Positions 11,001 through 30,391 of a stretch of 64,000 nt of DNA are shown here, piece after piece. Source of the stretch: Candidatus Marinacidobacterium sp. (lineage in GTDB: Bacteria; Acidobacteriota; Vicinamibacteria; Marinacidobacterales; Marinacidobacteraceae); NCBI GenBank assembly GCA_965223075.1, contig OZ244986.1, positions 3,204,462 through 3,268,461 on the forward strand, in the 5' to 3' direction. The number at the start of each line of letters is the position of its first letter. Position 1 is the first letter of the stretch. Both the position numbers and the translations under genes were made by a program. A model generated the notes under the pieces. The model made no database searches. It saw only the letters and a list, made by a program, of their open reading frames with translations, and was not told the DNA's origin.

Positions 11001-11532
11001 GGAGCGGAGGATGGCGGAACTGGACCGGGAGGGAGACATTGCAGCCGCGCCCCCGCAGGTCATCGGAGCCTCGCTCGTCGTCCCGGGTGGTCTGCTCCGC
11101 CGGCTCTCGGGTCCCGCGCCCTCCGAGGTCGCGAGCCCCGAGGGTCGGGCCGCCGTGGAGCAGATCGGGATGGCGGCTGTCATGGAGGCGGAACGCGGGC
11201 TCCGGCGGGAGCCGCGTGACGTGAGCGCCGAGAACCGGGGCTACGACATCGAGAGCCGCGACCCGGCGACCGGGCGGCTGCGCTTCATCGAGGTCAAGGG
11301 GAGGCGCGCCGACGCGACCACGGTCACGGTGACCCGCAACGAGACCGCTGTCGCCCTGAACTCACTCGACCAGTCCCACGACTACATCCTCGCCATTGTG
11401 CTCGTCGAGCAGGGGTACGCCCGGCGCACCGCCTACGTAACCGACCCGTTCCGCGCCGGCGTGGACGACACCACCGAAGCAGTCACCCACAACCTGAAGA
11501 GGCTGTTGGCGCGTTCGCAGCAACCGACCTGA
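8065..11532 (+). CDS. SNF2-family helicase with C-terminal DUF3883 (restriction-endonuclease-like) domain
   Basis: ATP-binding DDPGAGKT, DEAH box VVCDEAHRM, helicase-C motif RFGRIHRIGQ, C-terminal GYDIESRD...RFIEVKGR...HDYILAIVLV (DUF3883 pattern); TTG start at 8065 with no in-frame ATG upstream. Confidence 0.9.
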   Translation: MKFEDLHLGTRLRGVTPGVVTVVQAELRGDTALSLTYKDEAGALHEVLLFRDDESRLELAGPCPIRSFAADPKQFLLAAEAERIRLAHLFDPYLAVHTSKIEPLPHQITAVYGAMLDRHPLRFLLADDPGAGKTIMAGLLIKELVLRGDLERCLVVAPGSLVEQWQDELGEKFDLDFAILSRDLLAASRSGDPFSEHPRLIARLDMLSRGEDLQDLIRSAEEWDLVVCDEAHRMSASFFGAEAKYTKRYQLGRLLRDRARHFLLMTATPHNGKEEDFQLFLALLDPDRFEGRFRPGVHSKDASDTLRRLTKEELRRFDGTALFPERRAYTAQYELSEPETTLYEAVTQYVREEMNRAERFAATDDRRRVNVGFALTVLQRRLASSPAAIHESLKRRLARMEDRLTAMREGVPAPAPAPTLDPDDLEEATEEEIETTEERVLDQATAAATMEELETEIETLRRLEKQARALRLRNTDTKWRELNTVLDHPLMTAGNGHRRKLIVFTEPRDTLEYLADRIRTRLGRQDAVVVIHGGVSREARRDAVEAFMNDPEVVVMVANDAAGEGVNLQRAHLMVNYDLPWNPNRLEQRFGRIHRIGQTEVCHLWNLVAKDTREGEVYGRLLEKLDVARKALGGRVYDVLGRLFEGKAMRDLLLDAIRYGESPEARNRLFEKVDQAAATERIGELLAERALVREHLSPATVAEIRDQMARASARRLQPHFIRRFFLEAFRALGGSVHRRESGRFEIARVPTDIRDRLPRNLRPAVQPRYERICFERKDAAGPPFAAFVCPGHPLLDRTLGAILDRSRSALAEGAVLVNETDDRPEIRAEFAVRTAVTDGRKTRSGSRRTISERLAFVELDASGRVGNGGPAPHLDCRPIRDEERALLGDRLSAEWLGGDDAIMDHAVGALVPEHLGEVRMRRVAEIEKTQQQVFERLSRERTHWDNRANQLRARERAGKQGRIAAAQAARRAEELDARLERRMAELDREGDIAAAPPQVIGASLVVPGGLLRRLSGPAPSEVASPEGRAAVEQIGMAAVMEAERGLRREPRDVSAENRGYDIESRDPATGRLRFIEVKGRRADATTVTVTRNETAVALNSLDQSHDYILAIVLVEQGYARRTAYVTDPFRAGVDDTTEAVTHNLKRLLARSQQPT

Positions 11533-11666
11533 GTGACAGGCATCGAACGCCCGAACCTCCCAATCCACGCCCGAAAACCGCCCGGGAGCGCCTTTTGCCG
11601 GAGATATACTGCCGATCCGATGAGGACTTGGCCCTCCTGAGTTCAGCCCTGACGGAAGGGAGATCC

Positions 11667-12314
11667 ATGACGCGCGCCGAAATCGTCCTGGCGGCTATGG
11701 CTGCGGGGGGACGGGGCGTGTCCTATGACGGTCTCCGCATTCAGAAACTCCTGTTCCTGATTGATGTCGAGATATCGGACTTGTTGGAAGGACCGTATTT
11801 CGACTTCGCAGCCTACAACTATGGTCCGTTCGACAAGAGCCTCTACGAAGTACTTGGGGACCTGGAGCGTCGCGGAAACGTTGCGCAGGGACACGAGAAC
11901 GGTTATGCGGACTATTCCCTGACCTCGGAGGGCAGCGTGGAGGGCGGGCGCGTCCTGGGGACGCTTTCCCCAGAGGCGCGTCAGTTCATGGAGAGCGCGG
12001 CGAAGTGGCTCCGGCTGAGCACATTTCGTCGTATCCTGACCGTGATTTATCTCAAGTACCCCGAGATGGCCCGAAACAGCGTCGTGCCTGAACTCAAGGC
12101 TCCTTCGTTCCGGGCGGCGCACCGTTTCGTCCTCCCGTCATTCCTTTCAGGCGTCTCGCGCATCTTCGATTTCACCGGCAGCCTCGATCCACCCATCTAC
12201 CAGGAGCCGCCTGAGCAGGCGGATGCGATGGCCATTCGTCAGGATTGGGAGGCGGTCGGGGACGATCTCGAGCACGCGCTCGCGGCCTTCGGTCCGCCAG
12301 AGCCTGCACGGTGA
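11667..12314 (+). CDS. Panacea (DUF4065)-domain protein, putative antitoxin-type partner
   Basis: LRIQKLLFLIDVE...YNYGPFDKSLYEVL matches the Panacea KLQKLLYxAQ...YGPVxxxVY pattern; ATG at 11667 with AAGGGAG SD; GC ~58%, lower than flanks. Confidence 0.6.
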   Translation: MTRAEIVLAAMAAGGRGVSYDGLRIQKLLFLIDVEISDLLEGPYFDFAAYNYGPFDKSLYEVLGDLERRGNVAQGHENGYADYSLTSEGSVEGGRVLGTLSPEARQFMESAAKWLRLSTFRRILTVIYLKYPEMARNSVVPELKAPSFRAAHRFVLPSFLSGVSRIFDFTGSLDPPIYQEPPEQADAMAIRQDWEAVGDDLEHALAAFGPPEPAR

Positions 12315-12423
12315 CGAAGCGCCGGAACTCGCGCGCGAAGTCGCCTCCCGTCCGGAGATCGGTGGCGGCTGTTGTGGACCTGCCGCGTCCATCCAGCCAT
12401 CGGGCGAATGGAGAGATCGGAGC

Positions 12424-13272
12424 ATGAAGGCAAGTAACGGAATTGCCCGAAGTGCCCGAGCAGTATTCGTGGTTCACGGGCGCAATACCGAGGTGCGCGA
12501 CGCGATGTTCGAGTTTCTTCGCGCCGTTGATTTGCGTCCGATTGAGTGGTCAGAGGCGATCACGGGTACTGGCAGGCCGACCCCATCAATCCCTGAGATT
12601 CTGAGAGCCGCGTTTGCTCGGGCACGAGCCGTGGTCGTCCTGTTGACACCAGACGACAAGGCGGTGCTGAGAGAGCGATACTGGAAGGAAGGTGACCCGG
12701 ACGGCGAGCGCCGACCGTCAGGGCAAGCACGACCCAATGTGCTGTTCGAAGCCGGGATGGCCATGGCCTTCAAGCCAGAACGCACGATTCTCGTGCAGTT
12801 TGGAAGTTTGAGACCCTTTAGCGATATTGGCGGACTTCATGTCGTTCGCTTTCGTAATGACAGCCAGACGCGCCAGAACATCGCATCGAGGCTGGAGACG
12901 GCAGGTTGCCCGGTGAATCTGGCTGGTACGGATTGGCACACCGCGGGTGACTTCAATGATGCCGTGATGGACGACGACGAGGAGTCGTTCGACGAACAAG
13001 CGCCACAAGCCACTGGATGGCGGGAAGTTTCTGACTTCTCGGAACTCTCTGAGAACGCCAGGAGTGCGCTGCAGACAATGGCTGGTACGGATGCACCCTT
13101 AGTCAAATTCGCAAGTCTTGCTGATACTCGATTCCTCGTTGGCAGACGGTCCTTCTCCCCTCGAGTGTTTGAAGAGATGCTGGAAGCAAACTTGATTCGC
13201 GATGAGTCCGGAGAGGGAAAACGGTTCATATTGACCCACGCTGGATATCAGGCTGCCGATGGCCTCCAATAG
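12424..13272 (+). CDS. TIR-like domain protein (PF10137 'predicted nucleotide-binding protein containing TIR-like domain') with ~130-aa C-terminal extension
   Basis: AVFVVHGRN...AVVVLLTPDD...ARPNVLFEAGMAMA...RTILVQFG matches the PF10137 motif order (VFIVHGhD / LLTPDD / RPNVxFExGyf); ATG at 12424 with GGAGAG SD; GC ~55%. Confidence 0.6.
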   Translation: MKASNGIARSARAVFVVHGRNTEVRDAMFEFLRAVDLRPIEWSEAITGTGRPTPSIPEILRAAFARARAVVVLLTPDDKAVLRERYWKEGDPDGERRPSGQARPNVLFEAGMAMAFKPERTILVQFGSLRPFSDIGGLHVVRFRNDSQTRQNIASRLETAGCPVNLAGTDWHTAGDFNDAVMDDDEESFDEQAPQATGWREVSDFSELSENARSALQTMAGTDAPLVKFASLADTRFLVGRRSFSPRVFEEMLEANLIRDESGEGKRFILTHAGYQAADGLQ

Positions 13273-13292
13273 CTGTCAGGTGTGACGCGCTG

Positions 13293-16169
13293 GTGACAAC
13301 AGCCGAGCTCCGGACCGTCCCGAAGCTCATCGAGGTGGCGCTGCCGCTTGATGACATCAACCGGGCGGCGGCGCGGGAGAAGTCCATCCGACACGGCCAC
13401 CCGAGTACGCTGCATCTCTGGTGGGCGCGGCGTCCCCTGGCGGCGGCGCGAGCGGTGCTGTTCGCGCAACTGGTGGACGATCCGTCGGGGCGGCCGGAAC
13501 TCTTCCCGACCGAGGCGGAGCAGGACCGCGAGCGCGAGCGGCTATTCGGGATCCTGCGGAAGCTGGTGCTCTGGGAGAACACCACGAACGAGGAGGTCCT
13601 CGAAGCGGCGCGGGCGGAGATCCGGGAGTCGTGGCGCCGGACGTGCGCCGACAACGCGGACCACCCGCGGGCGGTGGAGCTCTTCGACCCGGAGAAGCTG
13701 CCGGCGTTCCATGACCCGTTTGCCGGGGGCGGCGCCATCCCGCTCGAGGCGCAGCGGCTCGGGCTGGAGGCGCACGCGAGCGACCTGAACCCGGTCGCGG
13801 TGCTCATCAACAAGGCGATGATCGAAATTCCGCCCCGGTTCGCGGGAAGGCCGCCGGTGAACCCGGAGGCGCGGGCGCGGAAGTCGGTGGCCGGACGGGA
13901 GTGGCGCGGGGCGGCGGGGCTCGCCGAGGACGTGCGCTACTACGGGAAGTGGATGCGGGACGAGGCGGAACGGCGGATCGGGCATCTCTACCCGAAGGCG
14001 CGCATCACGCCGGAGATGGTGGCGGACCGGCCGGACCTGGAGCGCTACAAGGGTCGGGACCTGACCGTGATCGCGTGGCTCTGGGCGCGGACGGTGCCGA
14101 GCCCCAACCCGGCGTTTTCGCACGTCCAGGTTCCGCTGGTTTCGACGTTCATGCTCTCGACGAAGAAGGGGAAGGAGGCGTACGTGGAGCCGGTGGTGGA
14201 GGGCGACTCTTTCCGGTTCGAGGTCCGGGTGGGAACGCCGCCGGATTTCGGAGCCTCGGAAAGAGGTACGAGCGCTGGAAAACGCAGTGGATTCCGATGT
14301 CTGATGTCCGGCTCGCCGATTACCTTCAATCACGTTCGCGTTGAGGGACGGGAGGGGCGGATCGGACAGCGACTCATGGCAGTCGTCGCGGCAGGCGATC
14401 GAAGTCGAATCTATCTGCCCCCCGCGGTGGTGCAACAAACGACGGTCAGCGAAACACCTTGGAATCCCGACGTTCGCTTGGAAGGCAAGTGTCGAGTCAA
14501 CGTCTCGAACTATGGCTTCGACGTTTACAGAGACCTCTTTACGTCGCGGCAGCTCGTCGCTCTGACGAATTTGTCTGACCTTGTCAGTGAGGCGGTGAAG
14601 CGAGCGCGTGCGGACGCGGCACAATCTTATCTGCCCGCCGACGACCGACCACTGGCCGAAGGCGGCACCGGCCCCTGCGCCTATGCCGAGGCGGTTGGGG
14701 TGTATCTCGGTTTGTCTGTCAGCCGGACGACCAACACCATCAATGCCCATACAGTTTGGTCTAAGGGTAGAGGACAGACCGTGAATCTGTTCAGCCGGCA
14801 GGCTATACCAATGACTTGGGATTTCCCCGAGGCGAGTCCCTTCTCGCGAGCGGCGGGTGACTTCGCCATGACTACGGATTCGGTAAGTAAAGTGCTCACT
14901 TACGTCTCAAGAGGCTTTGGAACTGCGGCGCAAGAAGACGCGCAGACACAAGTCAGATCGGTCTTGCGGATCGTCTCAACGGACCCGCCGTACTACGACA
15001 ACGTTGCCTATGCGGACCTGTCAGATTTCTTCTATGTGTGGCAACGGAGGACTCTTCGTCAGACTTACCCTGACATATTCGCCACGGTGTCAGTGCCCAA
15101 AGCCGACGAGCTAGTGGCGACCCCGTACCGTCACGCCAGCAAGCAAGCTGCAGAGACATTCTTCCTTAGGGGAATGACTCGGGCACTCCGGCGACTCTCA
15201 GAACAACCTCATGGTGCATTTCCGATCACCGTCTACTACGCGTTCAAACAGTCAGAAACGAAAACCGGAACCAGAACGGTGAGCACGGGTTGGGAGACGT
15301 TCTTGGACGCCGTTATCCGATCCGGATTCGCGATCTCCGGAACATGGCCAATGCGTACTGAAAGGCCGACGGGCGTAAAGGTTGCTTTCAACGCACTCGC
15401 GTCAAGCATCGTTCTCGCGTGTCGAAGACGACTCCCCAATGCGCCCTCGACTACCCGGCGCAGTTTCCTGGCTGCTCTCCACACGGAACTTCCAGAAGCC
15501 ATCACTCGCCTCCAGGACGAAAACATCGCGCCGGTAGATCTCGCGCAGGCCGCCATCGGCCCCGGCATGGCGATCTTCACCCGCTACTCGCGCGTCCTCG
15601 AAGCCGACGACTCCCCGATGACCGTTCGCATGGCCCTCGCCCTCATCAATGCGGAACTCGACCAGATCCTCTCCGCTCAGGACGCCGACTACGATCCCTG
15701 GACCCGCTTCGCGGTCACCTGGTTCGAGACGAAGGGCATGGACCCCGGCCCCTACGGTGACGCTGAGACCCTCGCCACCGCCCGCGGCGTGGCGGTCGAA
15801 GGCGTCGTCCACGCTGGCATCCTGAAGGCGACCGCCGGCCAGGCCCGCCTACTCCGCCGGGACGAACTCGATCCCGGCTGGTCCCCCGAAACCGACGACC
15901 GCCTCACTGTCTGGGAGTGCGCACAGCACGTCGCCCGCCGCCACGAAGACGGCGGCGAGATGTCCGCCGCCGCGCTGGTCGCCCGCCTCGGCGACCGCGC
16001 CGCCGCCGCCCACGCCCTCGCCTATCGCCTCTACGGCATCTGCGACCGGAAGAAACTCGCCGAAGAAGCCCTCGTCTGGAACGAACTCGTCCAACTCTGG
16101 CCCCGCCTCACTGAACTAGCCCCTACCGCCACCGCCCCGCGCCCCCAAGACCTTCTCAGCAGTAAATGA
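13293..16169 (+). CDS. DUF1156 (COG1743) Zn-ribbon-type adenine-specific DNA methyltransferase
   Basis: N-terminal LIEVALPLDDINRAAAREKSIRHGHPSTLHLWWARRP is the DUF1156 signature; DPPY catalytic motif (STDPPYYDNVAY); GTG start; the central ~1.2 kb has distinctly lower GC. Confidence 0.85.
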   Translation: MTTAELRTVPKLIEVALPLDDINRAAAREKSIRHGHPSTLHLWWARRPLAAARAVLFAQLVDDPSGRPELFPTEAEQDRERERLFGILRKLVLWENTTNEEVLEAARAEIRESWRRTCADNADHPRAVELFDPEKLPAFHDPFAGGGAIPLEAQRLGLEAHASDLNPVAVLINKAMIEIPPRFAGRPPVNPEARARKSVAGREWRGAAGLAEDVRYYGKWMRDEAERRIGHLYPKARITPEMVADRPDLERYKGRDLTVIAWLWARTVPSPNPAFSHVQVPLVSTFMLSTKKGKEAYVEPVVEGDSFRFEVRVGTPPDFGASERGTSAGKRSGFRCLMSGSPITFNHVRVEGREGRIGQRLMAVVAAGDRSRIYLPPAVVQQTTVSETPWNPDVRLEGKCRVNVSNYGFDVYRDLFTSRQLVALTNLSDLVSEAVKRARADAAQSYLPADDRPLAEGGTGPCAYAEAVGVYLGLSVSRTTNTINAHTVWSKGRGQTVNLFSRQAIPMTWDFPEASPFSRAAGDFAMTTDSVSKVLTYVSRGFGTAAQEDAQTQVRSVLRIVSTDPPYYDNVAYADLSDFFYVWQRRTLRQTYPDIFATVSVPKADELVATPYRHASKQAAETFFLRGMTRALRRLSEQPHGAFPITVYYAFKQSETKTGTRTVSTGWETFLDAVIRSGFAISGTWPMRTERPTGVKVAFNALASSIVLACRRRLPNAPSTTRRSFLAALHTELPEAITRLQDENIAPVDLAQAAIGPGMAIFTRYSRVLEADDSPMTVRMALALINAELDQILSAQDADYDPWTRFAVTWFETKGMDPGPYGDAETLATARGVAVEGVVHAGILKATAGQARLLRRDELDPGWSPETDDRLTVWECAQHVARRHEDGGEMSAAALVARLGDRAAAAHALAYRLYGICDRKKLAEEALVWNELVQLWPRLTELAPTATAPRPQDLLSSK

Positions 16170-16350
16170 GGATCCGGTTCTTGAACCCACCACCCGCTGA
16201 TCCGGCATTCTGGTGGGCCTCCGGACGCCGCGGCGCGGCGGAGTCCGTCCGGCCGAAGGGCGACTTGAGATCGCTTTTTTCGTCCATGGCTGCTGCGAGC
16301 GGTCGTTGAACGCCACGTCCTTAAATCATCAGACCATGGCCTAATGATCA

Positions 16351-17577
16351 ATGAGGGTCTCTCACGCAGTGAACACGACAGAAAAACGAGACGGTTTCTT
16401 CGCTCGCAGAGTCGCAGCGCTCTGTCAGGAAATAGAGAAGTGGGCACGCGCAAATGACCTATGGCATGACTGTGGGTTCTTCGACTATCTGGAGCGAGTA
16501 GATCCACTTCGGTGGGACGACACCGCGTACGCGGTGGTTTTGGCTGCAGAAGGCGACTTTGCCCGAGTGATCTTTGCCCGTGATTACTGGGCCGCAGATG
16601 GAGAGCGTGACTTACCGGAAGAGTTTGACCAAATCTTGCAAAGACACGGCTTTTGGTATGAACAATACGATCACACAGAAATGTGGATCTACCCTAACGG
16701 AAACTCGCTAGAGGCGGAATTCAGAGAGCACTTACGTTGGAAGTGGATATGCAATCTGATAAAACCCGACTTCGACTTGCTGAATGAGGAGCTATACGAT
16801 CACTTCGGAAAGACGCCTGATCGGCTACAGGCGTTGGACTGGCGAGACTTCGAGAAACTCGTTGCTGCCTTGTTGGAGTCTCAAGGGTACGAAGTGGAAC
16901 TTGGCCCAGGGAGCAACGATGGGGGCGTAGACATAAGGCTTCTTCAGAGGGATCCAGTTGGGGATATTCTGACTTTGGTTCAGGTCAAGCGGTACAGAAC
17001 TGATCGGCGAATACGGCTTGATGCTGTGCAGGCCCTACACGGAGCTATGACGGCGGAAGGTGCCCCCCGGAGCATGTTCGTTACAACATCCGAATATGCG
17101 GTGAGTGCACGAAAATTCGCGAATCGACACAATGTACCGATGACGTTCCATACGTCGGATGATGTTCAGCAGTGGTGCAGGGATGCCCATAACGGCATCG
17201 TGGAGGACAAGAGGACCCTCGTGTCCGAAAAAAATATCGCCAAGATTATCGAGAAAGCGCAGACAGACCACCGGCAAGTGCTTCACAGTCAAGGTGGCTA
17301 CAGTATGACAATGAACACGTTTGCCGTAGTACTAAAGGCGACGCGTACCTCCGCGCTGCTGTTGGAACTTCCGACACGGACGACCGAACATGACGGGTAC
17401 GGACAGCGAGGCCGCGAAGTGCCTGACTTGGGTCCAGCGCTGCCGCTTTCGCACCTTCGTGGAAACGAGATACGGAGGGCAAGAAGGACACCAGGCAGTG
17501 CTGGGACGTTCTGGGATGGTCATAGACGGTATGCGCCTTGGGGTGGCAAGCCCGTCCATTTCGACTACATGGATTGA
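16351..17577 (+). CDS. Mrr-like restriction endonuclease (Mrr_cat PD-(D/E)xK domain) with ~150-aa unknown N-domain
   Basis: FEKLVAALLESQGYEVELGPGSNDGGVDIRLL...LVQVKRY matches the Mrr catalytic core; GC ~52% versus ~70% flanks; AT-rich upstream (ttaaatcatcagacc); the 3' ~280 nt return to high GC and low-complexity translation, so the true stop is uncertain. Confidence 0.6.
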   Translation: MRVSHAVNTTEKRDGFFARRVAALCQEIEKWARANDLWHDCGFFDYLERVDPLRWDDTAYAVVLAAEGDFARVIFARDYWAADGERDLPEEFDQILQRHGFWYEQYDHTEMWIYPNGNSLEAEFREHLRWKWICNLIKPDFDLLNEELYDHFGKTPDRLQALDWRDFEKLVAALLESQGYEVELGPGSNDGGVDIRLLQRDPVGDILTLVQVKRYRTDRRIRLDAVQALHGAMTAEGAPRSMFVTTSEYAVSARKFANRHNVPMTFHTSDDVQQWCRDAHNGIVEDKRTLVSEKNIAKIIEKAQTDHRQVLHSQGGYSMTMNTFAVVLKATRTSALLLELPTRTTEHDGYGQRGREVPDLGPALPLSHLRGNEIRRARRTPGSAGTFWDGHRRYAPWGGKPVHFDYMD

Positions 17578-17750
17578 CTTGCGGATTCAGCGTCCGGACC
17601 TGGGCGCGGTTTTCGCCCTTTGCGATGCTGGCGATGCCGAGCTGGAGGTCGGCGGTCTCTTGGCTGTCCCGTCACCCTCGTTGACCGGCGTTCCCCCCTC
17701 GAGCATGCCCGGCTTGGCCGGGGTACCGGGAGCGGGTACGCTGGCGTGAA

Positions 17751-21032
<3,282 letters not shown>

Positions 21033-21045
21033 GGGAGGAAAACCG

Positions 21046-21321
21046 ATGCGCGGTGTGCTGATCGAGATTGGCCAGAGGGCCGCCGATTTCGTCCGGATGG
21101 CGCTGCGCCAGGTCCTCCTTCGGCGGCGGGAGCCGTCCGCGGTGCGGCTCCCGAATGCGGAAACCATTGCGGCGTTGAACGAGCCTACGCACAGCCTGAA
21201 GCGGTTCGATTCGGTGGAGGATCTGTTCGCGGACATCAAGGCCGGTACGTCCGGTTCGCGGGCCGGAGCGGGGAGAACTGCGCGAAACCCCCACGGGAAA
21301 AACATCTGTGGTGGGTGCTGA
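21046..21321 (+). CDS. DinJ/RelB-like antitoxin-fold small protein
   Basis: ADFVRMALRQVLL...PNAETIAALNE...DSVEDLFADI parallels E. coli DinJ (SDLVRITLTKV...PNQLTIQSIKN...DADDLFDKL); GGGAGG SD 8 nt upstream of the ATG; begins 14 nt after the DUF499 stop. Confidence 0.5.
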   Translation: MRGVLIEIGQRAADFVRMALRQVLLRRREPSAVRLPNAETIAALNEPTHSLKRFDSVEDLFADIKAGTSGSRAGAGRTARNPHGKNICGGC

Positions 21322-21787
21322 ACGGGCCAGCCTGATTCTGGTGGGATGCGTCAAACGCAAGCGCAGTCAGTCATGTGCCGCCCGGGACCTTTACGATGAG
21401 TCGCCGCTCTGGCGCGGCCGACGGGCATACGCCGAACGCTCCGGCGCGCCCTGGTACATCCTGAGCGCCAAACACGGTCTGTTGGCCCCGAACGCCTGGA
21501 TCGGACCGTATGACCTGGCGCTGAAGCACCTCAAGCGGGAAGAACGCCGAGACTGGTCGCGGAACGTGCTCGACGAACTCCGCGCCCGGTTCCCGACGCT
21601 CACTGGCAAGATGGTGGAGTGCCACGCAGGCAAGGACTATTTGGAAAACGGGCTGGAGGAGGGGCTGCGGAAAGCGGGCGCCGTCGTCCGCCGACCCCTG
21701 GCAGGTGTGGGAATCGGCGTCCAACTCCGTTGGTACCGCGTGCAGTCAGACGCATCCGGCGCCGGAGGGAGAAAGAGAGATGGCTGA
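21308..21787 (+). CDS. Small conserved protein, DUF6884-like (tentative)
   Basis: LILVGCVKRKR...ARDLY...WYILSAKHGLL...PYDL resembles the SCSxxK / ILSAKYGL pattern of DUF6884-type proteins; GTG start overlapping the DinJ-like stop by 14 nt. Confidence 0.45.
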   Translation: MVGAERASLILVGCVKRKRSQSCAARDLYDESPLWRGRRAYAERSGAPWYILSAKHGLLAPNAWIGPYDLALKHLKREERRDWSRNVLDELRARFPTLTGKMVECHAGKDYLENGLEEGLRKAGAVVRRPLAGVGIGVQLRWYRVQSDASGAGGRKRDG

Positions 21788-22682
21788 TGCGGCCCGGCTG
21801 GCGGAGTTGATCAGCGAGGACTTCTACGGAGGTAACCTGGACTTCAACACGAGGAAGCCCGGGAGCGATGACTGGTCGAACCTGCCGGAAGTCGAGGCGA
21901 CGGACAGGATGCCGCCGACGGACGCGGCAGTCGCCACCGATGGGCTCCGCGATGACCATGTGACCGGACGGACAGTGCGTTTGTTCCTGACCTTTGTCGC
22001 GGCGGTGGACAAGATGCGGGATGCGACGCAACTGTGGCGCGCGGCGGGCAATCTGTTCCGGACGAACCCGGAAGTCTTCGACCCTGCGGTCGTGTCCTCC
22101 ATGTCGTTGGAGACGCTGCGGAAACTGCTCTCCAACAGCCGCGTGACCCGGTACCCCGATCGGCAAGCCCGGGCTTGGCGGACGATTGCCGCGAGTCTCT
22201 CCGCACGGAACGGTCCGGTGTGCCGGGTGGTGGATTCGGGCTATGGAGATGCCGCGGAATTGCTCAAGGACGTCCGGAGCCGCGACCGACACGGCCAGAC
22301 GCGATTCCCGGAGCTTCGCGGCGACAAGATCAGACTGATGTGGATTCGGATGATGGCGGAGCCGGGCAAAGCGCGCATTCGCCGTCTGGACACCGTTCCG
22401 GTCGCGGTGGATGTGCAGGTTCGCCGCGTGACCGAGAACTTGGGCGTGACCGATACCCGCGGCCCGGCACTCAACAACAGGATCAAGAAGGAGATTCAGA
22501 ACGCTTGGTCTGCCGCCGTCGCCAATGCCCGGATCGGCGGTCCAGAACGCATCGCCGGGACCTGCTCGGCGCTCGATCCGGCGCTCTGGTTCTACGGCAA
22601 ACACGGCTGCAGCCACTGCGAAAGCGCGAAACGACAGGTCCGCTTTGGCCGGGCCTGCGACTCTTGCCGGTTTCAGATTTAG
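21780..22682 (+). CDS. HhH-GPD (endonuclease III-like) DNA glycosylase-like protein with C-terminal Cys4 cluster
   Basis: VAVDVQVRRVTENLG parallels EndoIII VDTHVFRV around the catalytic Asp; C-terminal C-x2-C-x12-C-x2-C; ATG at 21780 overlapping the upstream stop by 8 nt, with SD GGAGGGAG. Confidence 0.45.
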   Translation: MADAARLAELISEDFYGGNLDFNTRKPGSDDWSNLPEVEATDRMPPTDAAVATDGLRDDHVTGRTVRLFLTFVAAVDKMRDATQLWRAAGNLFRTNPEVFDPAVVSSMSLETLRKLLSNSRVTRYPDRQARAWRTIAASLSARNGPVCRVVDSGYGDAAELLKDVRSRDRHGQTRFPELRGDKIRLMWIRMMAEPGKARIRRLDTVPVAVDVQVRRVTENLGVTDTRGPALNNRIKKEIQNAWSAAVANARIGGPERIAGTCSALDPALWFYGKHGCSHCESAKRQVRFGRACDSCRFQI

Positions 22683-22740
22683 GTGCCATCGGGGTGGGCG
22701 CGATACGCCCCGATCCCGGCTGATGCGCCATCCATTCCAG

Positions 22741-22887
22741 TAGCGATTCGCGGTTTCGCCCGCCTTCGGCGCGCGATGCCGGCCGGAGGCCGGCGTTCCA
22801 AGCCGTCCCCGCGCTTCTTCACAATCGGGGGGACGCGGTTTCGCGGCCCTCCGGGCCGCGGTGCCGGTGTGAACACCGGCGTTCCCT
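22741..22887. repeat. REP-like repeat units in minus orientation
   Basis: GCCGGCCGGAGGCCGGCGTTCCAAGCCGTCCCCGCGCTTCTTC and GCCGGTGTGAACACCGGCGTTCCC hairpins. Confidence 0.8.
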
Positions 22888-22925
22888 GAACGGCGGCGCT
22901 GCCTTGCTGGGTCTCTTTCCCGGGG

Positions 22926-25900
22926 TCAGGGGACCGTCACTAGTTCGGTCGTGGGTGGCGCGGGCGCCGCCTCACCGCTCAGGCGCCAGACCCGGCGCGC
23001 CCGCACGGCGAGGTCGTCCAGCAGCGTGTAGAAGAAGGGGAGGATGACCAGGGTGAGGACGGTGGAGGCGGCGAGTCCGCCGATCACCGCCCGCGCCAGC
23101 GGGAAGTAGTAGAGGCCGTCGAGCCCGGTCCGCCCGATCGCCATCGGGAGGAGGGCGAGCATGGTGGCGCCCGCGGTCATCAGGATCGGCCGCAGCCGGT
23201 CGCGCCCGCCGACAAGCAGCGCCTCGGAGCGGTCCATCCCGCCCCGGCGCAATTTGTTCACGTGGTCGATCAGCACGATCCCGTTCTTGACCACGATCCC
23301 CATCAGGATGAGCATCCCGATCTGGGCCATCAGGTTGAAGGGGCTGTCCGTGAAGAGCAGCGTCCAGCTCGCACCCCAGAGCGCGTAGGGGATCGAGATC
23401 AGGATCGCGAGGGGGTGGATCAGCGATTCGAACTGGGCGGCCATCACGATGTAGATGAGGAGCAGCGCGAGCAGGTAGTTCACGGCCATGTTCTGGAGGT
23501 CGGTGTCCTGCCGGCTGATCCGGTCGCCGAACGACCACGAATAGCCCGCGGGGAGGGCCATGGCGTCGAGCTCCTCCTCGATCGCGGTGCGGGCGTCGTC
23601 CCACGCCTCGCCCTCGTAGGCGGCGCGAAGCGTCGCCACCGCCTTCCGGTCCACCCGCCGGATTGCTCGGCTCCTTTCGACGATCTCGAAGTCGGCGAGA
23701 TCGCCCAGCAGGATCGGGACGCCGCCGTCGGACATCAGGGTGAAGTTCTCGAGGTCTTCCACCCGGGAAACGTCCTTTTGGGACATGGTGAGGAGCACCT
23801 CGGCCTCGCGGTCCTCGGTCTGGAAGCGCCGGAGCGGGCGCCCCCCGAGCGTGAAGCCGAAGATCTCGGCGAGGTCCTGCGGGCTGATGCCGAGCCGGGC
23901 GGCCTCCTCGACCCGCGGCCGCACCACGACTTCCTTCCGCAGGGTGTCCTCGGTGCTCCGGATGTCCGCGACGCCCCCGACGCCCGCTATCCGCGTCTCG
24001 GCGCTCTTCGCGAACTCCGCGAGCCTTTCGGAGTCCTCCCCGTAGAACCGGACCCGGAAGAACATGCTGTCCCCGCCGGTTGCCTGATCGTCGTCGCCGA
24101 ACACGATCCGGGTGCCGGGAAGGATCGGGAGGGCCTCCTTGACCCGTTCCTTCATTTTCTTCCCTTCGGCGTCCGAGATGTGCTCCTTCCCGAACGAGAT
24201 CACGGTCTGCGCCTCGTTCTCCGCGAAGAAGCTGTACACCGATTCGATCCCGAGCTCCTCCCGGAGTCCGGCGAGTTCGCGTTCGACGGCCAGCACCGCG
24301 ATCCGGGCGTCCTCCTTGTAGTGGAAGTCCGAGAACTCGTAGGCGAGCCAGATCCGGTTGCGGTTGAGCCCGGAGAACATCGCGGTGGAGAGTCCGAGGA
24401 AGAACGGCAGGATCGCGGTGACCAGGAAGGCGGCCGCGATTCCCGCGGTGACCCAGCGGCGGCGCAGGGTGAACCGCAGGACGCCCTGGTAGAGATCGCC
24501 GAGGCGTTCCGTCCACTGCGGCGCCACCGACGGCTTTCTGGCGAGCAGTCGCGAGCTCACCAGCGGAATCAGGGTCAGCGAGATGAACAGCGAGCAGAAG
24601 ATGGTCAGCGAGATGGCGAGGCCGATCTCCCCGAGCCAGATGGACATCTCGTTCTTCGATCCCAGGACAGCCGGCAGGAACACCACCGCGGTGGTGACCG
24701 TGGAGGCGATCACGGCGCCGGAGACCGCCTGGGCGCCGGAGATGGCGGCAACCTTCGCCGGGATGCCGCGGCCGTGCTCCCGGACCACGGACTCGAGGAC
24801 CACGATGGCATCGTCCACGAGGAGCCCGATCCCGAGCATCATCCCCATCATCGAGAGCACGTTCAGCGACCGGCCGGCGAAGTAGAGGACGATCGCGGTT
24901 GCGATGATGGACATCGGGATCGTCAGGCTGACGATCGAGGTGGTGTCCACCCGCCGGAGGAACAAGAACAGGACCAAAACCGCGAGGAGCGCGCCCAGCA
25001 GTCCCTCGGTGCGGATGCCCGAGAGCCCCGAGGTGATCTCCTCCGCCTGGTCCTCCCAGACGAAGAGGTTGATGCCGCTGAGCGCCGGATCGGCGGCGAT
25101 CTCCGCCTCGATCAGCTCGGTGACCGCGGTGGCCACCTCGACCGTGTTGGCTTCCGCGCTCTTGTAGACGGTCAACCCGATGGCCGTTTCGTCGTCCAGA
25201 TGCCGTCCGAACGGAATCGGGGGCTCCTGGTAGGTCACCTCGGCGATGTCCGCGACAGTGAGCCCCCGGTCGTTCAGGGGAAGGCTGCCGATCTCGTCGA
25301 TCGCGGACAGCGCACCGAACCCGCGCACCGGCGTTACCACGCCATCCGTCCGGATGCGTCCGAGCGACACGTTGCGGTTCATGCCCGAAACACGCTCCGT
25401 GACCTCGCCGAGGTCCACCCGGTGGGCCGCGAGCCGGTCGAGGCGCAGGTTGATCCGCACCTCGCGCGGCTCGACGCCGTCGAGGTCCACGCGGGCGACC
25501 CCCGGAACCCGGCGGATCGGGTCGGCGATCCGCCGCTCCAAACGGTCGTAGTTCGCGGACAGATCCATCCCGGGGGCGGAAATCCGCGCCTCGACGATGG
25601 GGATCTGCGTCGTCGAGAAGGTGTTGACGTAGATCTCCTTCACGTCGGAAGGAAGATCCCGGCGGGCGTCCTCGACGGCCTCGAACACCTTCGCCCGCGC
25701 GACGTCCACCGTTTCGCCCCAGGTGAACTCGAGCTGGAGCTCGGCGCTGTCGGCGTTCGCGGTGGAGTGGATCCGGCGAGCGCCGGGAATGGTGGCGAGC
25801 GCCTCTTCGAGCGGTTGGACGATCTCCCGCTCGATCTGCCGGGGGCTCGCGTTCGGATAGGGAACGTTGACGAAGACTCCCGGGAAGTCCACGTCCGGCA

Positions 25901-26009
25901 GGTAGGCGAGGGGGATCCGGGTGAACGAGATGCCGCCGAGCACCAGCAGGCTCAGCAGCACCATCGCGGTGGTGACCGGCCTGTTTACCGCAAGGCGAGG
26001 AAGACTCAT
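22926..26009 (-). CDS. RND efflux permease (AcrB/CzcA/MdtC-like), second of a tandem pair
   Basis: About 1027 aa with 12 TM helices and two large periplasmic loops; start trimmed to ATG 26007-26009 (MSLPRLAVNRP...) because the 5' extension in the track overlaps a REP hairpin. Confidence 0.9.
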   Translation of the reverse strand: MSLPRLAVNRPVTTAMVLLSLLVLGGISFTRIPLAYLPDVDFPGVFVNVPYPNASPRQIEREIVQPLEEALATIPGARRIHSTANADSAELQLEFTWGETVDVARAKVFEAVEDARRDLPSDVKEIYVNTFSTTQIPIVEARISAPGMDLSANYDRLERRIADPIRRVPGVARVDLDGVEPREVRINLRLDRLAAHRVDLGEVTERVSGMNRNVSLGRIRTDGVVTPVRGFGALSAIDEIGSLPLNDRGLTVADIAEVTYQEPPIPFGRHLDDETAIGLTVYKSAEANTVEVATAVTELIEAEIAADPALSGINLFVWEDQAEEITSGLSGIRTEGLLGALLAVLVLFLFLRRVDTTSIVSLTIPMSIIATAIVLYFAGRSLNVLSMMGMMLGIGLLVDDAIVVLESVVREHGRGIPAKVAAISGAQAVSGAVIASTVTTAVVFLPAVLGSKNEMSIWLGEIGLAISLTIFCSLFISLTLIPLVSSRLLARKPSVAPQWTERLGDLYQGVLRFTLRRRWVTAGIAAAFLVTAILPFFLGLSTAMFSGLNRNRIWLAYEFSDFHYKEDARIAVLAVERELAGLREELGIESVYSFFAENEAQTVISFGKEHISDAEGKKMKERVKEALPILPGTRIVFGDDDQATGGDSMFFRVRFYGEDSERLAEFAKSAETRIAGVGGVADIRSTEDTLRKEVVVRPRVEEAARLGISPQDLAEIFGFTLGGRPLRRFQTEDREAEVLLTMSQKDVSRVEDLENFTLMSDGGVPILLGDLADFEIVERSRAIRRVDRKAVATLRAAYEGEAWDDARTAIEEELDAMALPAGYSWSFGDRISRQDTDLQNMAVNYLLALLLIYIVMAAQFESLIHPLAILISIPYALWGASWTLLFTDSPFNLMAQIGMLILMGIVVKNGIVLIDHVNKLRRGGMDRSEALLVGGRDRLRPILMTAGATMLALLPMAIGRTGLDGLYYFPLARAVIGGLAASTVLTLVILPFFYTLLDDLAVRARRVWRLSGEAAPAPPTTELVTVP

Positions 26010-26029
26010 GCTGCGCTCAAAGGAGCGCC

Positions 26030-26075
26030 GGTCTCCAGACCGGCATCGCCCGCCGGAGGCGGGTGAAACTCCCCG
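26030..26075. repeat. Type-B REP-like element (GGAGCGCCGGTCTCCAGACCGGCATCGCCCGCCGGAGGCGGGTGAAACTC)
   Basis: Near-identical copies lie directly after stop codons at 36365 and 41296, and partially at 61548. Confidence 0.7.
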
Positions 26076-26127
26076 ACCCCCGAAAGCTGCATGACCCATA
26101 TCACCCCGTGGTTCCTCCCTTCCCGCC

Positions 26128-29100
26128 TCACGCCGCAAACCTCTTTCGATCGAACACCGCGTACGCCGTCGGGATGACCACCAGCGTCAGCAGGGTCGAG
26201 ACCGCCAGTCCCCCGATGACCGTGATCGCCATCGGGCCCCGGATCTCGGCCCCCTCGCCGAGGCCGAGCGCCATCGGGGTCAGAGCGAGGATGGTCGTCA
26301 GGGTGGTCATCAGGATCGGCCGCAGCCGGATCTGCCCGGCGGCGACGATCGCCTCCGCCTTCGCCATGCCGTCGCGGCGCAGCCGGTTGATGCAGTCCAC
26401 CAGCACGATGGCGTTCTTGACCACGATCCCGGCCAGCATGACCACCCCGATGAGCACGATCACGCTGATCGTGGATCCCGAGAGCAGCAGCGCCCACACC
26501 ACCCCGATGGCCCCGAGCGGGATCGTGAACAGGATCAGGAAGGGGTGGAGCAGCGACTCGAACTGGCTCGCCATCACGAAATAGACGAGGAAGATGGCGA
26601 GGCCGATGGCGAGCGCCAGGCTCGCGAAGGAACGCTCCATCTCCTCGCGCTGTCCCCCGAAGCGGGTGGAGACGCCCGGCGCGAGTCCGAGCCCGGCGAT
26701 GCGGGTCCCGATGGCCTCGGTGGCTCCGGCCAGATCCACGCCGTCGAGGTTGCCCGAGACCACCACCGCCGGACGCTGGCCCACCCGGCGGAGTTCGGCC
26801 GGTCCCTCGCTGACCTCGGCGTTCCCGAGCGCCCGGAGCGGCACGGCGCGCGCCTCCTCGGAGTGCACGATCAGTTCCGGCACCGCGGCGGTGCGGGAGC
26901 GGAGGTTCTCGCTGCCCCGCACCACGATGTCGATCCGCCGGTCGCCCTCGTCGAGCCGGGTGGCGACCTCGCCGCGGAGCTTGGAGCGAAGCCCTTCGGA
27001 CGCCTGGTCCACGGTGAGGCCGAGGCTCGCCAGCCGGTCGGCGGCGAATCGGACCCGGATCTCCGGACTCCCCGCTTCGGCGGTCGAACGCACGTCGGCC
27101 AGCCCGGGAACCTCGGCGACGGCCGCCTGCACCCGGCGGGCGCTCGGCACCAGCAGCGAGCGGTCCTCGGAAAAGACCTCGACCTCGACGGGCTGGCGCA
27201 CGCTGAAGTAGGACGGCCGGCCGAACTCGTAGCGGATCCCCGGCCGCTCCGCGAGGCCGGCCCGGACCCTCTCGATCGCGGCCACCTCGGCCTCCTTGTC
27301 TCCGCGATCGGCCATCACCACCTGGACCCGGCCCTGGTGCTCGGCGCGGCCCGAGCCGCCCGCGAAGCCTCCCCCCGCGGCGGTGCCCGCTTCGGTGGTC
27401 ACCCGGAGCACCGCCGGATCGTCGAGCGCGGCAGTGCCCACACCGTCCACCACCGTGTCGGTCGCCGTCACCGCGGACCCCTCCGGGAGGTGGACGTCGA
27501 AGTGGAACTCGCCCTGGGAGAGCGCCGGGATGAGTTCGACGCCGATGGCGGCTCTGCCGACAGCAAGCGATCCGGCGAAGAGCCCGGCCGCCAGCGCGAA
27601 GACGATCACCGGGTGGCCGAGAGCGGCGCGCAGCACCGGCGGGTAGGCGTCCGCCACCGCGGTCTCGGCCGCGCGGAAAGCCCAGAACACCGGCCGCAGC
27701 GGAAAGATGAGCACGCGCCCGACCTTGCGCAAACCCGTGCGGACCGCACGGAGCACCCGGACCGTGATCGTCGGCTTCGCCTCCCCGGTGGAACCGGAAA
27801 CGGCCCCGCCCCGGCTGGCGAGAACCGGGATCAGCGCCAGCGAAAAGCCCAGCGAGGCAAGGATGGAGATGGAGACCGTGAGCGCCTGGTCGCGGAAGAG
27901 CTGTCCGGCGACTCCCTCCACGAAGACGATGGGCAGGAACACGGCGACGGTGGTCAGGGTCGAGGCGATCACCGGACCCGCGACCTCCACCGTTCCGGCG
28001 ACCGCCGCATCCCGCGCGGGCTCGCCCCCGTGGCGCCGGCGGTGGATCGCCTCCAGCACCACGATGGAGTCGTCGAGCAGCATGCCGACCCCGAGCGCGA
28101 GCCCGCCGATCGACATGATGTTCAAGGAAAGCCCCATCTGCTGCATCACGAAGAAGGTGGCGATCACCGAGACGGGAATGGCCATCGCGACCACCGCCGT
28201 CGCCCGCCGGTCGCGGAGAAACAGCGCGATCACCAGGATGGCGAGCAGGCCCCCCTCCCAGGCGTTCCGCACGACCTCCGAGATCGCGCCTTCGATGAAC
28301 TGCGACTGATCGAAGAGGACGGCCAGCGACACCCCGGCGGGAACCGAGTCCTCCACCGCTTCGAGCTGCGCCCGGATGCCTTCGGCCACCCGCACCGTGT
28401 TCGCGTCTCCCTCCTTGAAGATCCTCACCTCGACGCCCTCGGCGCCGCCCTGCCGCAGGATCACTTCCTGATCCTTGAACCCGGAGCGGACTTCCGCCAC
28501 GTCGCCGAGCCTCACGAGCCGCCCGCTGGCCTCCTTCACGATCACCGCACCGATGCGGTCCAGCGTGTCCAGCTCGTTCAGCGTCCGGACCAGATAGCGG
28601 GCCTCGTCCTCGTACACGCTGCCGCCGGCGAGGTTCACGTTGTTCTCCGCCAGCGCCGTCCGGACCTCCGCGACGGTGATGCCGTAGGCGGCCAGCCGCC
28701 CCTCGTCCACATCCACCTGGATCTCGCGGACCAGTCCGCCCTCGATCCGGACCGCGGCGACCCCGTCCACCGCGTCGAGGTCCTTCTTGAGGTCCTCTTC
28801 GGTCCATTGCCGGACGCCGGAGAGCGGGAGTTCCCCGGAGACGCCGATTCGGAAGATGGCGTCCGAAGCCGGGTCGAAGCGCAATAGCCGGGGCCGCTCC
28901 GCGTCTTCCGGAAGGAGGACGCCGTCGAGCTTTTCCCGTACGTCGAGCCCGGCGAAGTCCATGTTCGTGTCCCAGACAAACTCCAGGGTGACTTCGGACA
29001 CCCCGGCGCGGGAGCGGGAAGTGACCCGGCGGAGCCCGGGGACGACCGAGGCCGCCTCCTCGATGGGGCGGGTGACCAGCGTTTCGACCTCGATGGGCGC

Positions 29101-29265
29101 AGCGCCCGTCATCCGGGTCTCGACCGTCAGGGTGGGATAGGAGATCTCCGGCAGCAGATTGACCGGCAGCCGGCCGAGGGCCACGAATCCGAAGACGCAG
29201 GCGGCCACGGTGAACATGGCGACGCTCACCGGCCGCCGAATGCAGGCGGCGATCAGGGACTTCAC
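26128..29265 (-). CDS. RND efflux permease (AcrB/MdtB-like), first of a tandem pair
   Basis: 1045 aa; MKSLIAACIRRPVSVAMFTVAACVFG... is a typical RND TM1; conserved AcrB-family architecture. Confidence 0.9.
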   Translation of the reverse strand: MKSLIAACIRRPVSVAMFTVAACVFGFVALGRLPVNLLPEISYPTLTVETRMTGAAPIEVETLVTRPIEEAASVVPGLRRVTSRSRAGVSEVTLEFVWDTNMDFAGLDVREKLDGVLLPEDAERPRLLRFDPASDAIFRIGVSGELPLSGVRQWTEEDLKKDLDAVDGVAAVRIEGGLVREIQVDVDEGRLAAYGITVAEVRTALAENNVNLAGGSVYEDEARYLVRTLNELDTLDRIGAVIVKEASGRLVRLGDVAEVRSGFKDQEVILRQGGAEGVEVRIFKEGDANTVRVAEGIRAQLEAVEDSVPAGVSLAVLFDQSQFIEGAISEVVRNAWEGGLLAILVIALFLRDRRATAVVAMAIPVSVIATFFVMQQMGLSLNIMSIGGLALGVGMLLDDSIVVLEAIHRRRHGGEPARDAAVAGTVEVAGPVIASTLTTVAVFLPIVFVEGVAGQLFRDQALTVSISILASLGFSLALIPVLASRGGAVSGSTGEAKPTITVRVLRAVRTGLRKVGRVLIFPLRPVFWAFRAAETAVADAYPPVLRAALGHPVIVFALAAGLFAGSLAVGRAAIGVELIPALSQGEFHFDVHLPEGSAVTATDTVVDGVGTAALDDPAVLRVTTEAGTAAGGGFAGGSGRAEHQGRVQVVMADRGDKEAEVAAIERVRAGLAERPGIRYEFGRPSYFSVRQPVEVEVFSEDRSLLVPSARRVQAAVAEVPGLADVRSTAEAGSPEIRVRFAADRLASLGLTVDQASEGLRSKLRGEVATRLDEGDRRIDIVVRGSENLRSRTAAVPELIVHSEEARAVPLRALGNAEVSEGPAELRRVGQRPAVVVSGNLDGVDLAGATEAIGTRIAGLGLAPGVSTRFGGQREEMERSFASLALAIGLAIFLVYFVMASQFESLLHPFLILFTIPLGAIGVVWALLLSGSTISVIVLIGVVMLAGIVVKNAIVLVDCINRLRRDGMAKAEAIVAAGQIRLRPILMTTLTTILALTPMALGLGEGAEIRGPMAITVIGGLAVSTLLTLVVIPTAYAVFDRKRFAA

Positions 29266-29296
29266 GGGGCGGTTCGCAGTCCGGAATCCGGGTGGA

Positions 29297-30391
29297 TCAG
29301 TTGCCGTTCAGGATCTCGACCGGGTCGCCCGGGGTGAGCGCGCCGTGGCCGGCAACCACCACTCGCGCTCCCGGCTCGAGCCCGTCCGGCAGTTCGATGA
29401 GCGCCCCCTCGGGGCTCTCCATCTCCACCCCGACCGTCACCTCCCGACGTACCGCCTTGCCTTCCTCGACCACGAAGACGTGGGCGCCTCCGTCGCTCTG
29501 GATGATCGCCCGCTTCGGGACCAGCACCGCGTTCTCACGCCGGCCGGTCTCGATGACCACGCGGGCGAAGGAGCCGGGACGGACGACCGCCCCCGCCGGG
29601 CGCGGAAGCGCGACGGTCACCTTCACGGTGCCCGTCGTGCGATCCACCACCGGACTGACCTCCCGGATGCGTCCGGTGATTCCGCTCCCGCTCGCATCCG
29701 ACTCCGGGCGGACCACCGCCGGCAGACCCGGTGTGAGGCCGATCACGTCCCGCTCCGGGACATAGAGCCGCGCCACCAGCGTGTCGAAATCGGCGAGGGT
29801 AAGCAGGTGCTGCGCGGGCTCCAGCCGGCCGCCCTGGACCAGCATGACCTCGGTGACCTTGCCCGCGAAGGGAGCCCGGATCTCGGTCCGCTCCAGCTCC
29901 AGCCGGGCCGTTTCGAGTTCGGAGGCGGCGAGGTCCCGATCGAAGCGGGCTTTCTCGTAGTCCCACTCGGAAACCAGGTCTTGTTCGAACGCTCGCTGCT
30001 GCCGGGAGAGCTCCGCATCGGCCCGTGACAGCCGGAGTTCGGCCTGCTGGAAGGAAAGCCGGCGCTCGCGGGCGTCCACCCGGGCCAGCACGTCCCCGGC
30101 GGCGACGGAATGGCCCTCCCGGACCCGGATCTCGGTGAGGACGCCCGACGTTTCGGACAACACCTGCGCCGTGCGCTCGGCCTCCACCGCGGAGGTGGTG
30201 GTGAGGTGAAGAGCGACCGGCCCGAGCCGCGCTTCGGTGACGCTCACCGGCGTCGGGGCCGCTTCTTCAGCGCCCGCGTCGATCTCGCTCGCCTCACTCG
30301 TTTCGGTCCCGGACAGCAGTAGCGGGACGACGACGGCCGCGCTGCCCAGTACCGCGGCTGCCGCCAGCACGACAAATAGTGTTCGCTTCAT
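29297..30391 (-). CDS. RND efflux periplasmic adaptor (membrane fusion protein)
   Basis: Signal/anchor MKRTLFVVLAAAAVLG; biotin-lipoyl and coiled-coil segments (RAPFAGKVTEV). Confidence 0.85.
   Translation of the reverse strand: MKRTLFVVLAAAAVLGSAAVVVPLLLSGTETSEASEIDAGAEEAAPTPVSVTEARLGPVALHLTTTSAVEAERTAQVLSETSGVLTEIRVREGHSVAAGDVLARVDARERRLSFQQAELRLSRADAELSRQQRAFEQDLVSEWDYEKARFDRDLAASELETARLELERTEIRAPFAGKVTEVMLVQGGRLEPAQHLLTLADFDTLVARLYVPERDVIGLTPGLPAVVRPESDASGSGITGRIREVSPVVDRTTGTVKVTVALPRPAGAVVRPGSFARVVIETGRRENAVLVPKRAIIQSDGGAHVFVVEEGKAVRREVTVGVEMESPEGALIELPDGLEPGARVVVAGHGALTPGDPVEILNGN

Follow-up and report, generated by a model that had tools for sequence, protein, structure and literature searches.

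A predicted base-excision cassette of DUF6884 and HhH-GPD genes beside a dinJ remnant at the end of an Hma locus in Candidatus Marinacidobacterium

Dag1, Dag2 and related glycosylases that belong to the HhH (helix-hairpin-helix) superfamily protect Vibrio and E. coli from phages that carry 7-deazaguanine modifications (bioRxiv 10.1101/2025.10.29.685425). Qng1 (DUF2419; PDB 7UGK and 7U07) is a queuosine-5'-monophosphate N-glycosylase, a monomeric nucleotide hydrolase found in eukaryotes and some bacteria (PMC9881137), and it shares with OGG1, OGG2 and AGOG a [D/Q]-x3-[W/F] residue pair that recognizes guanine by its Watson-Crick edge and stacks on the base (PMC3397491, PMC9881137). DUF6884 proteins, grouped with YaaA (DUF328) and DpdC as 'cantaloupe' proteins, are defined by the motifs CxxxK and LSAxxG (PMC11701544). 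The Hma, or 'Type-1 BREX-related', system has a core of an ATPase, a methyltransferase and a helicase, and the survey of these systems mentions no DUF6884 or glycosylase component (PMC12839542). We analyzed a stretch of 64,000 nucleotides (the window) from Candidatus Marinacidobacterium sp. (contig OZ244986.1, positions 3,204,462 to 3,268,461), in which three small open reading frames (ORF1, ORF2 and ORF3) lie just downstream of hmaC, the DUF499 gene of such a system. An initial annotation had taken the three as a module accessory to this methylation-based system. We found instead that the region probably holds two unrelated things: the scar of a dinJ antitoxin gene (ORF1) and an autonomous DUF6884/HhH-GPD base-excision cassette (ORF2 and ORF3). 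The pairing or fusion of these two genes and the unnamed glycosylase family of ORF3 are undescribed in the literature that we searched, while HhH glycosylases in defense and repair, and DUF6884 itself, are already known.

Synteny between the window and L003, a contig of an Acidobacteria metagenome-assembled genome (MAG), ran over two blocks of ~83% nucleotide (nt) identity (window 1978-6234 against L003 3-4244, and window 21306-30626 against L003 9527-18902), and the DUF6884/glycosylase pair was found to begin exactly where the right-hand block resumes. With three Vicinamibacterales MAGs (L005-L007), the blastn homology was limited to window positions 21306-22696, at 78% nt identity. A word search identified 540 homologues of ORF3, the family comprised 401 clusters at 50% identity, and 80 genomic loci with a member of this family (L003-L082) were compared. 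A DUF6884 match adjoined or was fused to the glycosylase domain in 46 of the 80, some of these matches being weak or fragmentary, and in the rest the glycosylase stood alone. The fusions were 430-790 amino acids (aa) long and occurred in both domain orders; OGG-like, DUF7662, DUF7669 or STAND NTPase domains were present in some of them. From these comparisons, ORF2 and ORF3 are predicted to be an autonomous, horizontally shared two-gene cassette with tight boundaries. The idea of a three-gene module did not hold, since only ORF2 and ORF3 travel together, often as one gene, and ORF1 is a fragment. Two diverged copies of the ORF3 family were present in several genomes or MAGs (L032/L047, on OZ242375.1 and 13 kb apart; L009/L033; L011/L040; L053/L071; L003/L034), and in some of these DUF6884 accompanied one copy only.

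All 80 loci came from uncultured MAGs, assigned to Acidobacteriota, Thermodesulfobacteriota/Dadabacteria, Chloroflexota, Gemmatimonadota (Palauibacter, Longimicrobiales), Latescibacterota and Rhodothermales. Many of the isolate names belong to what we take to be marine-sponge symbiont bins. The retention of ~50% identity across phyla suggests gene exchange within one habitat. A phage origin of the family was considered and dropped, as a scan of viral contigs with the family profile found no relatives.

ORF3 scored 15.9 bits against the Pfam HhH-GPD model (PF00730), under the cut-off of 26.2. The family has no model in Pfam, NCBIfam, PADLOC or PHROG, and a look-up of the exact ORF3 sequence (P0001) returned no record. 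The AlphaFold model (predicted local distance difference test, pLDDT, 83.7; predicted template modeling score, pTM, 0.85) is a two-lobe all-helical fold with a central helix-hairpin-helix, and it matched HhH-GPD enzymes strongly. We therefore assign ORF3 to the superfamily on structure and motif, not on profile score, and the HhH-GPD fold named in the initial annotation was borne out on this basis. Borne out as well were the catalytic region VAVDVQVRRV (residues 208-217) and the C-terminal Cys4. Asp211 and all four cysteines were invariant in 38 divergent members reaching down to 23% identity. W86, W133, R190 and W243 were also invariant in these members. In weak HMMER and hhalign alignments, Asp211 coincided with the VDTH-motif catalytic aspartate of endonuclease III. 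A search of PDB sequences with the family profile gave non-significant matches only (endonuclease III at E ~0.8-1), and hhalign against an approximate sequence of E. coli Nth aligned only the Asp helix, at a probability of 0.3%, so that this support is weak.

The label 'endonuclease III-like' did not fit. The solved fold closest to the ORF3 model was that of Qng1, with a lead over DNA glycosylases that was small and came partly from Qng1's larger size; NCBIfam gave no match. In endonuclease III and MutY, the cysteines of the [4Fe-4S] cluster loop are spaced C-x6-C-x2-C-x5-C. ORF3, on the other hand, differs from endonuclease III, MutY and AGOG in its CxxC-x12-CxxC spacing, which looks like a zinc knuckle in a part of the model with low pLDDT (49-69), and it also has an additional N-terminal region of ~60 residues and an insertion ahead of the HhH hairpin. 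Qng1 in turn is only 13-15% identical to ORF3 in sequence and has neither the Cys4 nor a DUF6884 partner. The spacing of K183-x3-M187 and D266-x3-W270 in ORF3 equals that of K199/I203 and D298/W302 in Qng1. The K-x3-hydrophobic and D-x3-W pattern with which OGG2, AGOG and Qng1 recognize guanine is thus retained in the family, and it suggests a guanine-derived base as the substrate.

ORF2 matched the Pfam DUF6884 model (PF21818) at E=1.7e-42 with 145.2 bits (cut-off 30), and its motifs GC14VKRK18 (CxxxK) and L52SAKHG57 (LSAxxG) were intact and invariant in alignment A5. It has the YaaA-like alpha/beta 'cantaloupe' fold, and the earlier reading of the middle ORF as DUF6884-like was confirmed. 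In the literature that we found on DUF6884, YaaA and DpdC proteins, a conserved pairing or fusion with such a glycosylase has no description. B. subtilis YfjM, a DUF6884 member, was enriched in pull-downs on abasic-site DNA, and YaaA is an oxidative-stress protein. ORF2 also matched the PADLOC candidate PDC-M57A (6e-28). ORF3 and ten fused homologues matched no other PDC-M57 component model, and a literature search for PDC-M57 gave nothing.

The resemblance of ORF1 to DinJ was real, at scores under the profile cut-offs, while its role as an antitoxin-fold regulator was not upheld. Pfam RelB (14.5 bits, cut-off 22.4; positions 19-79), NCBIfam TIGR02384 (17.8 bits, cut-off 45.65; positions 21-85) and phrog_2737 (positions 22-84) all aligned to ORF1 only from model positions 19-22 on, and thus the ribbon-helix-helix strand and helix 1 are missing. 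Of the DinJ features, helix 2 and the toxin-wrapping segment toward the C-terminus (PNAETIAALNE...FDSVEDLFADI) are still present in ORF1, whose own C-terminus is of low complexity and unrelated to DinJ. In the syntenic L003, a full-length DinJ (RelB 6e-13, model positions 2-80) overlaps a YafQ toxin (1.5e-26). Relative to L003, the window lacks 63 nt of the 5' end of dinJ, 40 nt of its 3' end and the whole of yafQ. No toxin gene lies beside ORF1 and the DUF6884 gene comes directly after it, as had been noticed in the initial annotation, and the truncation of dinJ explains the absence of a cognate RelE/YafQ toxin.

We compared the window with its close relative L004, which has the same hmaC-ORF1-ORF2-ORF3 order and 89% nt identity over window positions 17713-30912. 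ORF1 was 59% identical in aa, and its ratio of nonsynonymous to synonymous substitution rates (dN/dS), calculated on 71 codons, was 0.57. HmaC gave 93% and 0.10, ORF2 76% and 0.23, and ORF3 86% and 0.35, so that fast divergence and relaxed constraint mark ORF1. The two ORF1 copies differed by one indel, many replacements and the reading frame of the C-terminus. A true short DinJ-like family was considered and rejected in view of the intact dinJ and toxin in L003, the divergence of the two available copies, the indel and the differing C-terminal frames. By these comparisons ORF1 is an N- and C-terminally truncated dinJ remnant, not a working antitoxin, and it is unlikely to regulate anything because the DNA-binding strand and the toxin are both lost. 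An 'orphan antitoxin' can thus be a mere gene fragment, which calls for caution in annotation. As a separate observation, a Longimicrobiales MAG locus (L043 10965-11580) carries a complete DinJ (RelB 1.8e-15) and YafQ (8.7e-26) right after a fused DUF6884-glycosylase gene; it adds an independent second instance of dinJ-yafQ beside the cassette to L003 and the window remnant.

The two L003 blocks enclose a variable island of 15 kb in the window (Table 1). In its place, L003 has 5.3 kb that hold dinJ-yafQ together with a CopG-like gene, an AAA ATPase and some further genes, and no Hma. Direct or inverted repeats of at least 11 nt linking the island borders were not found, and a simple integrative-element model was therefore left unsupported. 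Near the TIR and Mrr cargo genes, the GC content falls to 0.56-0.61.

Table 1. Positions of the features discussed, numbered from the first letter of the window.
Feature	Position	Strand	Size or conservation	Description or basis
ORF1	21046-21321	+	91 aa	dinJ/relB-type antitoxin gene remnant
dinJ-homologous part of ORF1	21055-21242	+	188 bp, 82% nt to L003 4797-4984	blastn and three-way DNA alignment A2
ORF2	21308-21787	+	159 aa	DUF6884 protein, YaaA/DpdC-like 'cantaloupe' fold
ORF3	21780-22682	+	300 aa	unnamed family within the HhH-GPD N-glycosylase superfamily
Lys183 codon	22326-22328	+	invariant in 40 close homologues; 31/38 divergent members	HhH-motif lysine (ELRGDK)
Asp211 codon	22410-22412	+	invariant, 38/38 divergent members	putative catalytic Asp (PVAVDVQVRR)
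Asp266-x3-Trp270	22575-22589	+	D266 35/38, W270 29/38	last helix (LDPALW); model helix 262-275
Cys4 knuckle	22608-22667	+	all four Cys invariant in 38 divergent members	C277-x2-C280-x12-C293-x2-C296
Variable island	6235-21305			between conserved flanks; blastn synteny with L003
Hma / 'Type-1 BREX-related' system	8065-21032	+		PADLOC and Pfam
HmaA	8065-11532	+		SNF2 helicase with nuclease domain; PADLOC E=0
Cargo gene	11595-12314	+		SocA/Panacea-like, weak DarG similarity
Cargo gene	12223-13272	+		CAP12/Pycsar-type TIR protein
HmaB	13293-16169	+		DUF1156 methyltransferase; PADLOC E=0
Cargo gene	16351-17577	+		Mrr-family nuclease
HmaC	17751-21032	+		HEPN-DUF499 protein; PADLOC 2.7e-304
hmaC stop codon	21030-21032	+		

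The packing of the genes is one ground for reading the three ORFs as a dedicated, translationally coupled Hma accessory, in which a DinJ-fold regulator would control a glycosylase effector that complements the system. The coordinates agree with the geometry first described, three tightly packed ORFs that overlap by 14 nt and 8 nt and start just after the DUF499 stop. All are co-directional with hmaC and follow it without a gap; the possible ATG of ORF1 lies 13 nt past the hmaC stop, behind the Shine-Dalgarno sequence GGGAGGA (position 21019, given earlier as the start, is simply the first TTG of the open frame). ORF2 starts with GTG 21308, within ORF1, and ORF3 with ATG 21780, within ORF2 and preceded by GGAGGGAG. 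A scan for promoters and terminators gave zero promoter-like sites and one terminator-like site, fewer than expected, and an Rfam scan of 20500-23200 gave no match. The order is shared by L004, and in Ca. Palauibacter (L050) a second, divergent Hma also has DUF6884 and a glycosylase 3' of hmaC. In L050, however, a 285-bp spacer separates hmaC from the pair and there is no DinJ. ORF3 is translationally coupled to ORF2, and coupling or fusion of the two genes extends over many phyla. Their overlap is kept among relatives, at 8 nt in L003 and at 4 nt in both L001 and L050, while that of ORF1 and ORF2 is absent from L004, where the ORF1 stop precedes an alternative ORF2 start. In L003, ORF2 and ORF3 sit at the same site without Hma, and dinJ and yafQ are intact. 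Hma adjoins an ORF3-family gene in only two of the 80 loci, L004 (of the window lineage) and L050, and none of the seven other, metagenomic Hma loci carries the pair; in three of the seven, hmaB and hmaC are immediate neighbors. The published survey of Hma systems likewise has no such component (PMC12839542). We consider this reading very improbable; with respect to ORF1 and to general co-occurrence it is already largely refuted, and the cassette is not a dedicated Hma component, whether its role is defense or repair. Co-transcription of the pair with hmaC is plausible in the window genome and looks like a by-product of island rearrangement. Such rearrangement can leave closely packed genes whose stop and start codons overlap where a defense operon ends, a point to keep in mind in annotation.

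In the interpretation that we favor, of a scar beside an unrelated cassette, a dinJ-yafQ locus would have been truncated by rearrangement at the variable edge of the defense island, leaving ORF1. ORF3 would flip a non-canonical, probably guanine-derived base out of the DNA and excise it with Asp211 and Lys183. The DUF6884 partner may bind the lesion or the abasic site, and so find the substrate or handle the abasic product, a role proposed because YfjM was pulled down on abasic-site DNA. As to purpose, our tentative choice, at a little under an even chance, is a stand-alone, modification-directed anti-phage effector of the 'Dag' type, parked next to Hma at the right edge of the island and probably read through from hmaC; for the window copy, defense is favored slightly over repair. 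Consistent with defense are the patchy distribution, the listing of the DUF6884 partner by PADLOC as the candidate PDC-M57A, and the presence of restriction, defense or toxin-antitoxin genes within 10 kb in at least 20 of the 80 loci (at least 25%, a lower bound obtained with queries chosen ad hoc and without a matched control), notably modification-dependent nucleases. The counts were six for GmrSD, four for Mrr, three for McrBC, five for HsdR, two for Hma and two for DinJ-YafQ. In the Dag study, whose methods differ, defense or mobile-element genes were close to ~45% of defense glycosylases and to 3.1% of the housekeeping glycosylases in Vibrio (bioRxiv 10.1101/2025.10.29.685425). It is unlikely, in our estimate, that the DUF6884 protein and the Cys4 HhH-GPD enzyme form an undescribed two-component or fused anti-phage effector that recognizes hypermodified guanines in invading DNA (7-deazaguanine derivatives, for example) and excises them, with the DpdC/YaaA-like DUF6884 as a modified-base sensor or abasic-site processing partner. 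Such an effector would resemble a type IV restriction enzyme that works by base excision, and this would explain the recurrent placement beside GmrSD, Mrr, McrBC and Hma. Several points weigh against the favored interpretation. Immediate neighbors are heterogeneous and mostly metabolic genes; in 12 Thermodesulfobacteriota loci the gene has endonuclease V immediately downstream and stable surroundings of a housekeeping type, which fits repair, and another locus precedes LigD. About 40% of the loci are without DUF6884, so the partnership is not obligatory. The activity, substrate and phage role of the ORF3 family are all predicted, the equivalence of D266/W270 to the guanine-reading pair is presumed from the sequence, and Qng1, whose solved structure is the closest, has a free nucleotide and not DNA as its substrate. 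The pair was placed directly 3' of hmaC twice independently (window/L004 and L050), more often than by simple chance, an excess that we attribute to clustering in defense islands and not to membership of the system. ORF1 has a good Shine-Dalgarno sequence and an open frame in two genomes, and its dN/dS over so few codons is no proof of neutrality, which leaves room for a residual function. The endonuclease V operons, the LigD locus and the metabolic neighbors argue for a housekeeping base-excision-repair pair, to which we assign an appreciable minority chance; ORF3 would then remove an oxidized or deaminated purine (for example 8-oxoguanine, formamidopyrimidine-guanine or xanthine) from the cell's own DNA, with DUF6884 helping at the lesion or abasic site, and the position next to Hma would be coincidental. 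The OGG/AGOG-like D-x3-W motif, the behavior of YfjM and YaaA, and the lack of relatives in the viral contigs scanned point the same way. Such a pair fits poorly with a patchy distribution that indicates horizontal transfer, the cassette-tight boundaries, several multi-copy genomes and the fusions to STAND NTPases. The same applies to the share of loci beside restriction, defense or toxin-antitoxin genes, compared with ~3% for Vibrio housekeeping glycosylases, and to the other loci with integrases and transposases among their second-nearest genes. The likeness to Qng1, which releases queuine from queuosine-5'-monophosphate, raises a further alternative, that ORF3 is an N-glycosidase of the free nucleotide or nucleoside pool serving salvage or pool sanitation. 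We rate it as improbable, given the small and partly size-dependent lead of Qng1, the DNA-binding fold of the obligate-looking partner DUF6884, the OGG-like domain among the fusion partners, and neighbors that are DNA-acting enzymes and not salvage transporters or tRNA-guanine transglycosylases.

Compared by description, the Dag enzymes and the ORF3 family are alike in their HhH fold, very divergent sequences, absence of a family annotation and Lys/Asp catalytic pair. In both, the distribution is patchy and mobile, defense or mobile-element genes are frequent neighbors, and specificity for a guanine-type base may be a further common trait. On the other hand, Dags are single genes, mostly in integron cassettes, whereas the ORF3 family has DUF6884 as a neighbor or fusion partner in over half of the loci, has the C-terminal Cys4 knuckle and comes almost exclusively from uncultured marine MAGs. 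An active pair would add a two-subunit architecture to the newly recognized glycosylase-based immunity or to base-excision repair and would open a first functional way into the DUF6884 family, which is widespread and without demonstrated activity. The K/D catalytic pair, the D-x3-W motif and the Cys4 knuckle give specific mutational and substrate predictions.

In the Thermodesulfobacteriota/Dadabacteria MAGs, the ORF3 homologue and the endonuclease V gene (nfi) appear to form a conserved, putative repair operon. The nfi gene was co-directional and ~20 nt downstream in L013-L016, L020, L021, L025, L027-L029, L040 and L054 (at about 10880-11590 in most), and also in L083 (8001-9592). DUF6884 was present upstream of the homologue-nfi pair as well in L027 and L029. 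A 141-aa ORF upstream of the Thermodesulfobacteriota homologues was considered as a cryptic DUF6884 and rejected, as neither Pfam nor a custom DUF6884 hidden Markov model matched it.

Other Hma loci varied in their gene content. In L086, L088 and L090, hmaB directly abuts hmaC, and L004 instead carries, upstream of hmaC, a gene for an HTH_upstream_double_PIN-domain protein whose length is at least 1571 aa. In L050 (2015-5579), hmaB is split into a 203-aa DUF1156 ORF and a 716-aa ORF, through a frameshift or a genuine split, and a fragment of an AAA_21/AAA_15-type ATPase is inserted upstream.

Two further features were noted elsewhere in the window. A HigB-like toxin ORF (47878-48156) overlaps a HigA-like helix-turn-helix antitoxin ORF (48131-48457), both identified from their translations alone, and window positions 48114-48446 were 82% identical in nt to L043 6195-6529, the Longimicrobiales locus that also has a fused DUF6884-glycosylase gene. 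The shared HigBA-type stretch suggests cross-phylum sharing of small mobile modules. Four window segments (37626-37897, 43780-44143, 46299-46454 and 51033-51191) all matched L039 1387-1723 at 70-77% nt identity; they sit in tandem ORFs of ~800 aa between 31309 and 52449, which suggests that these ORFs are a paralogous gene array.

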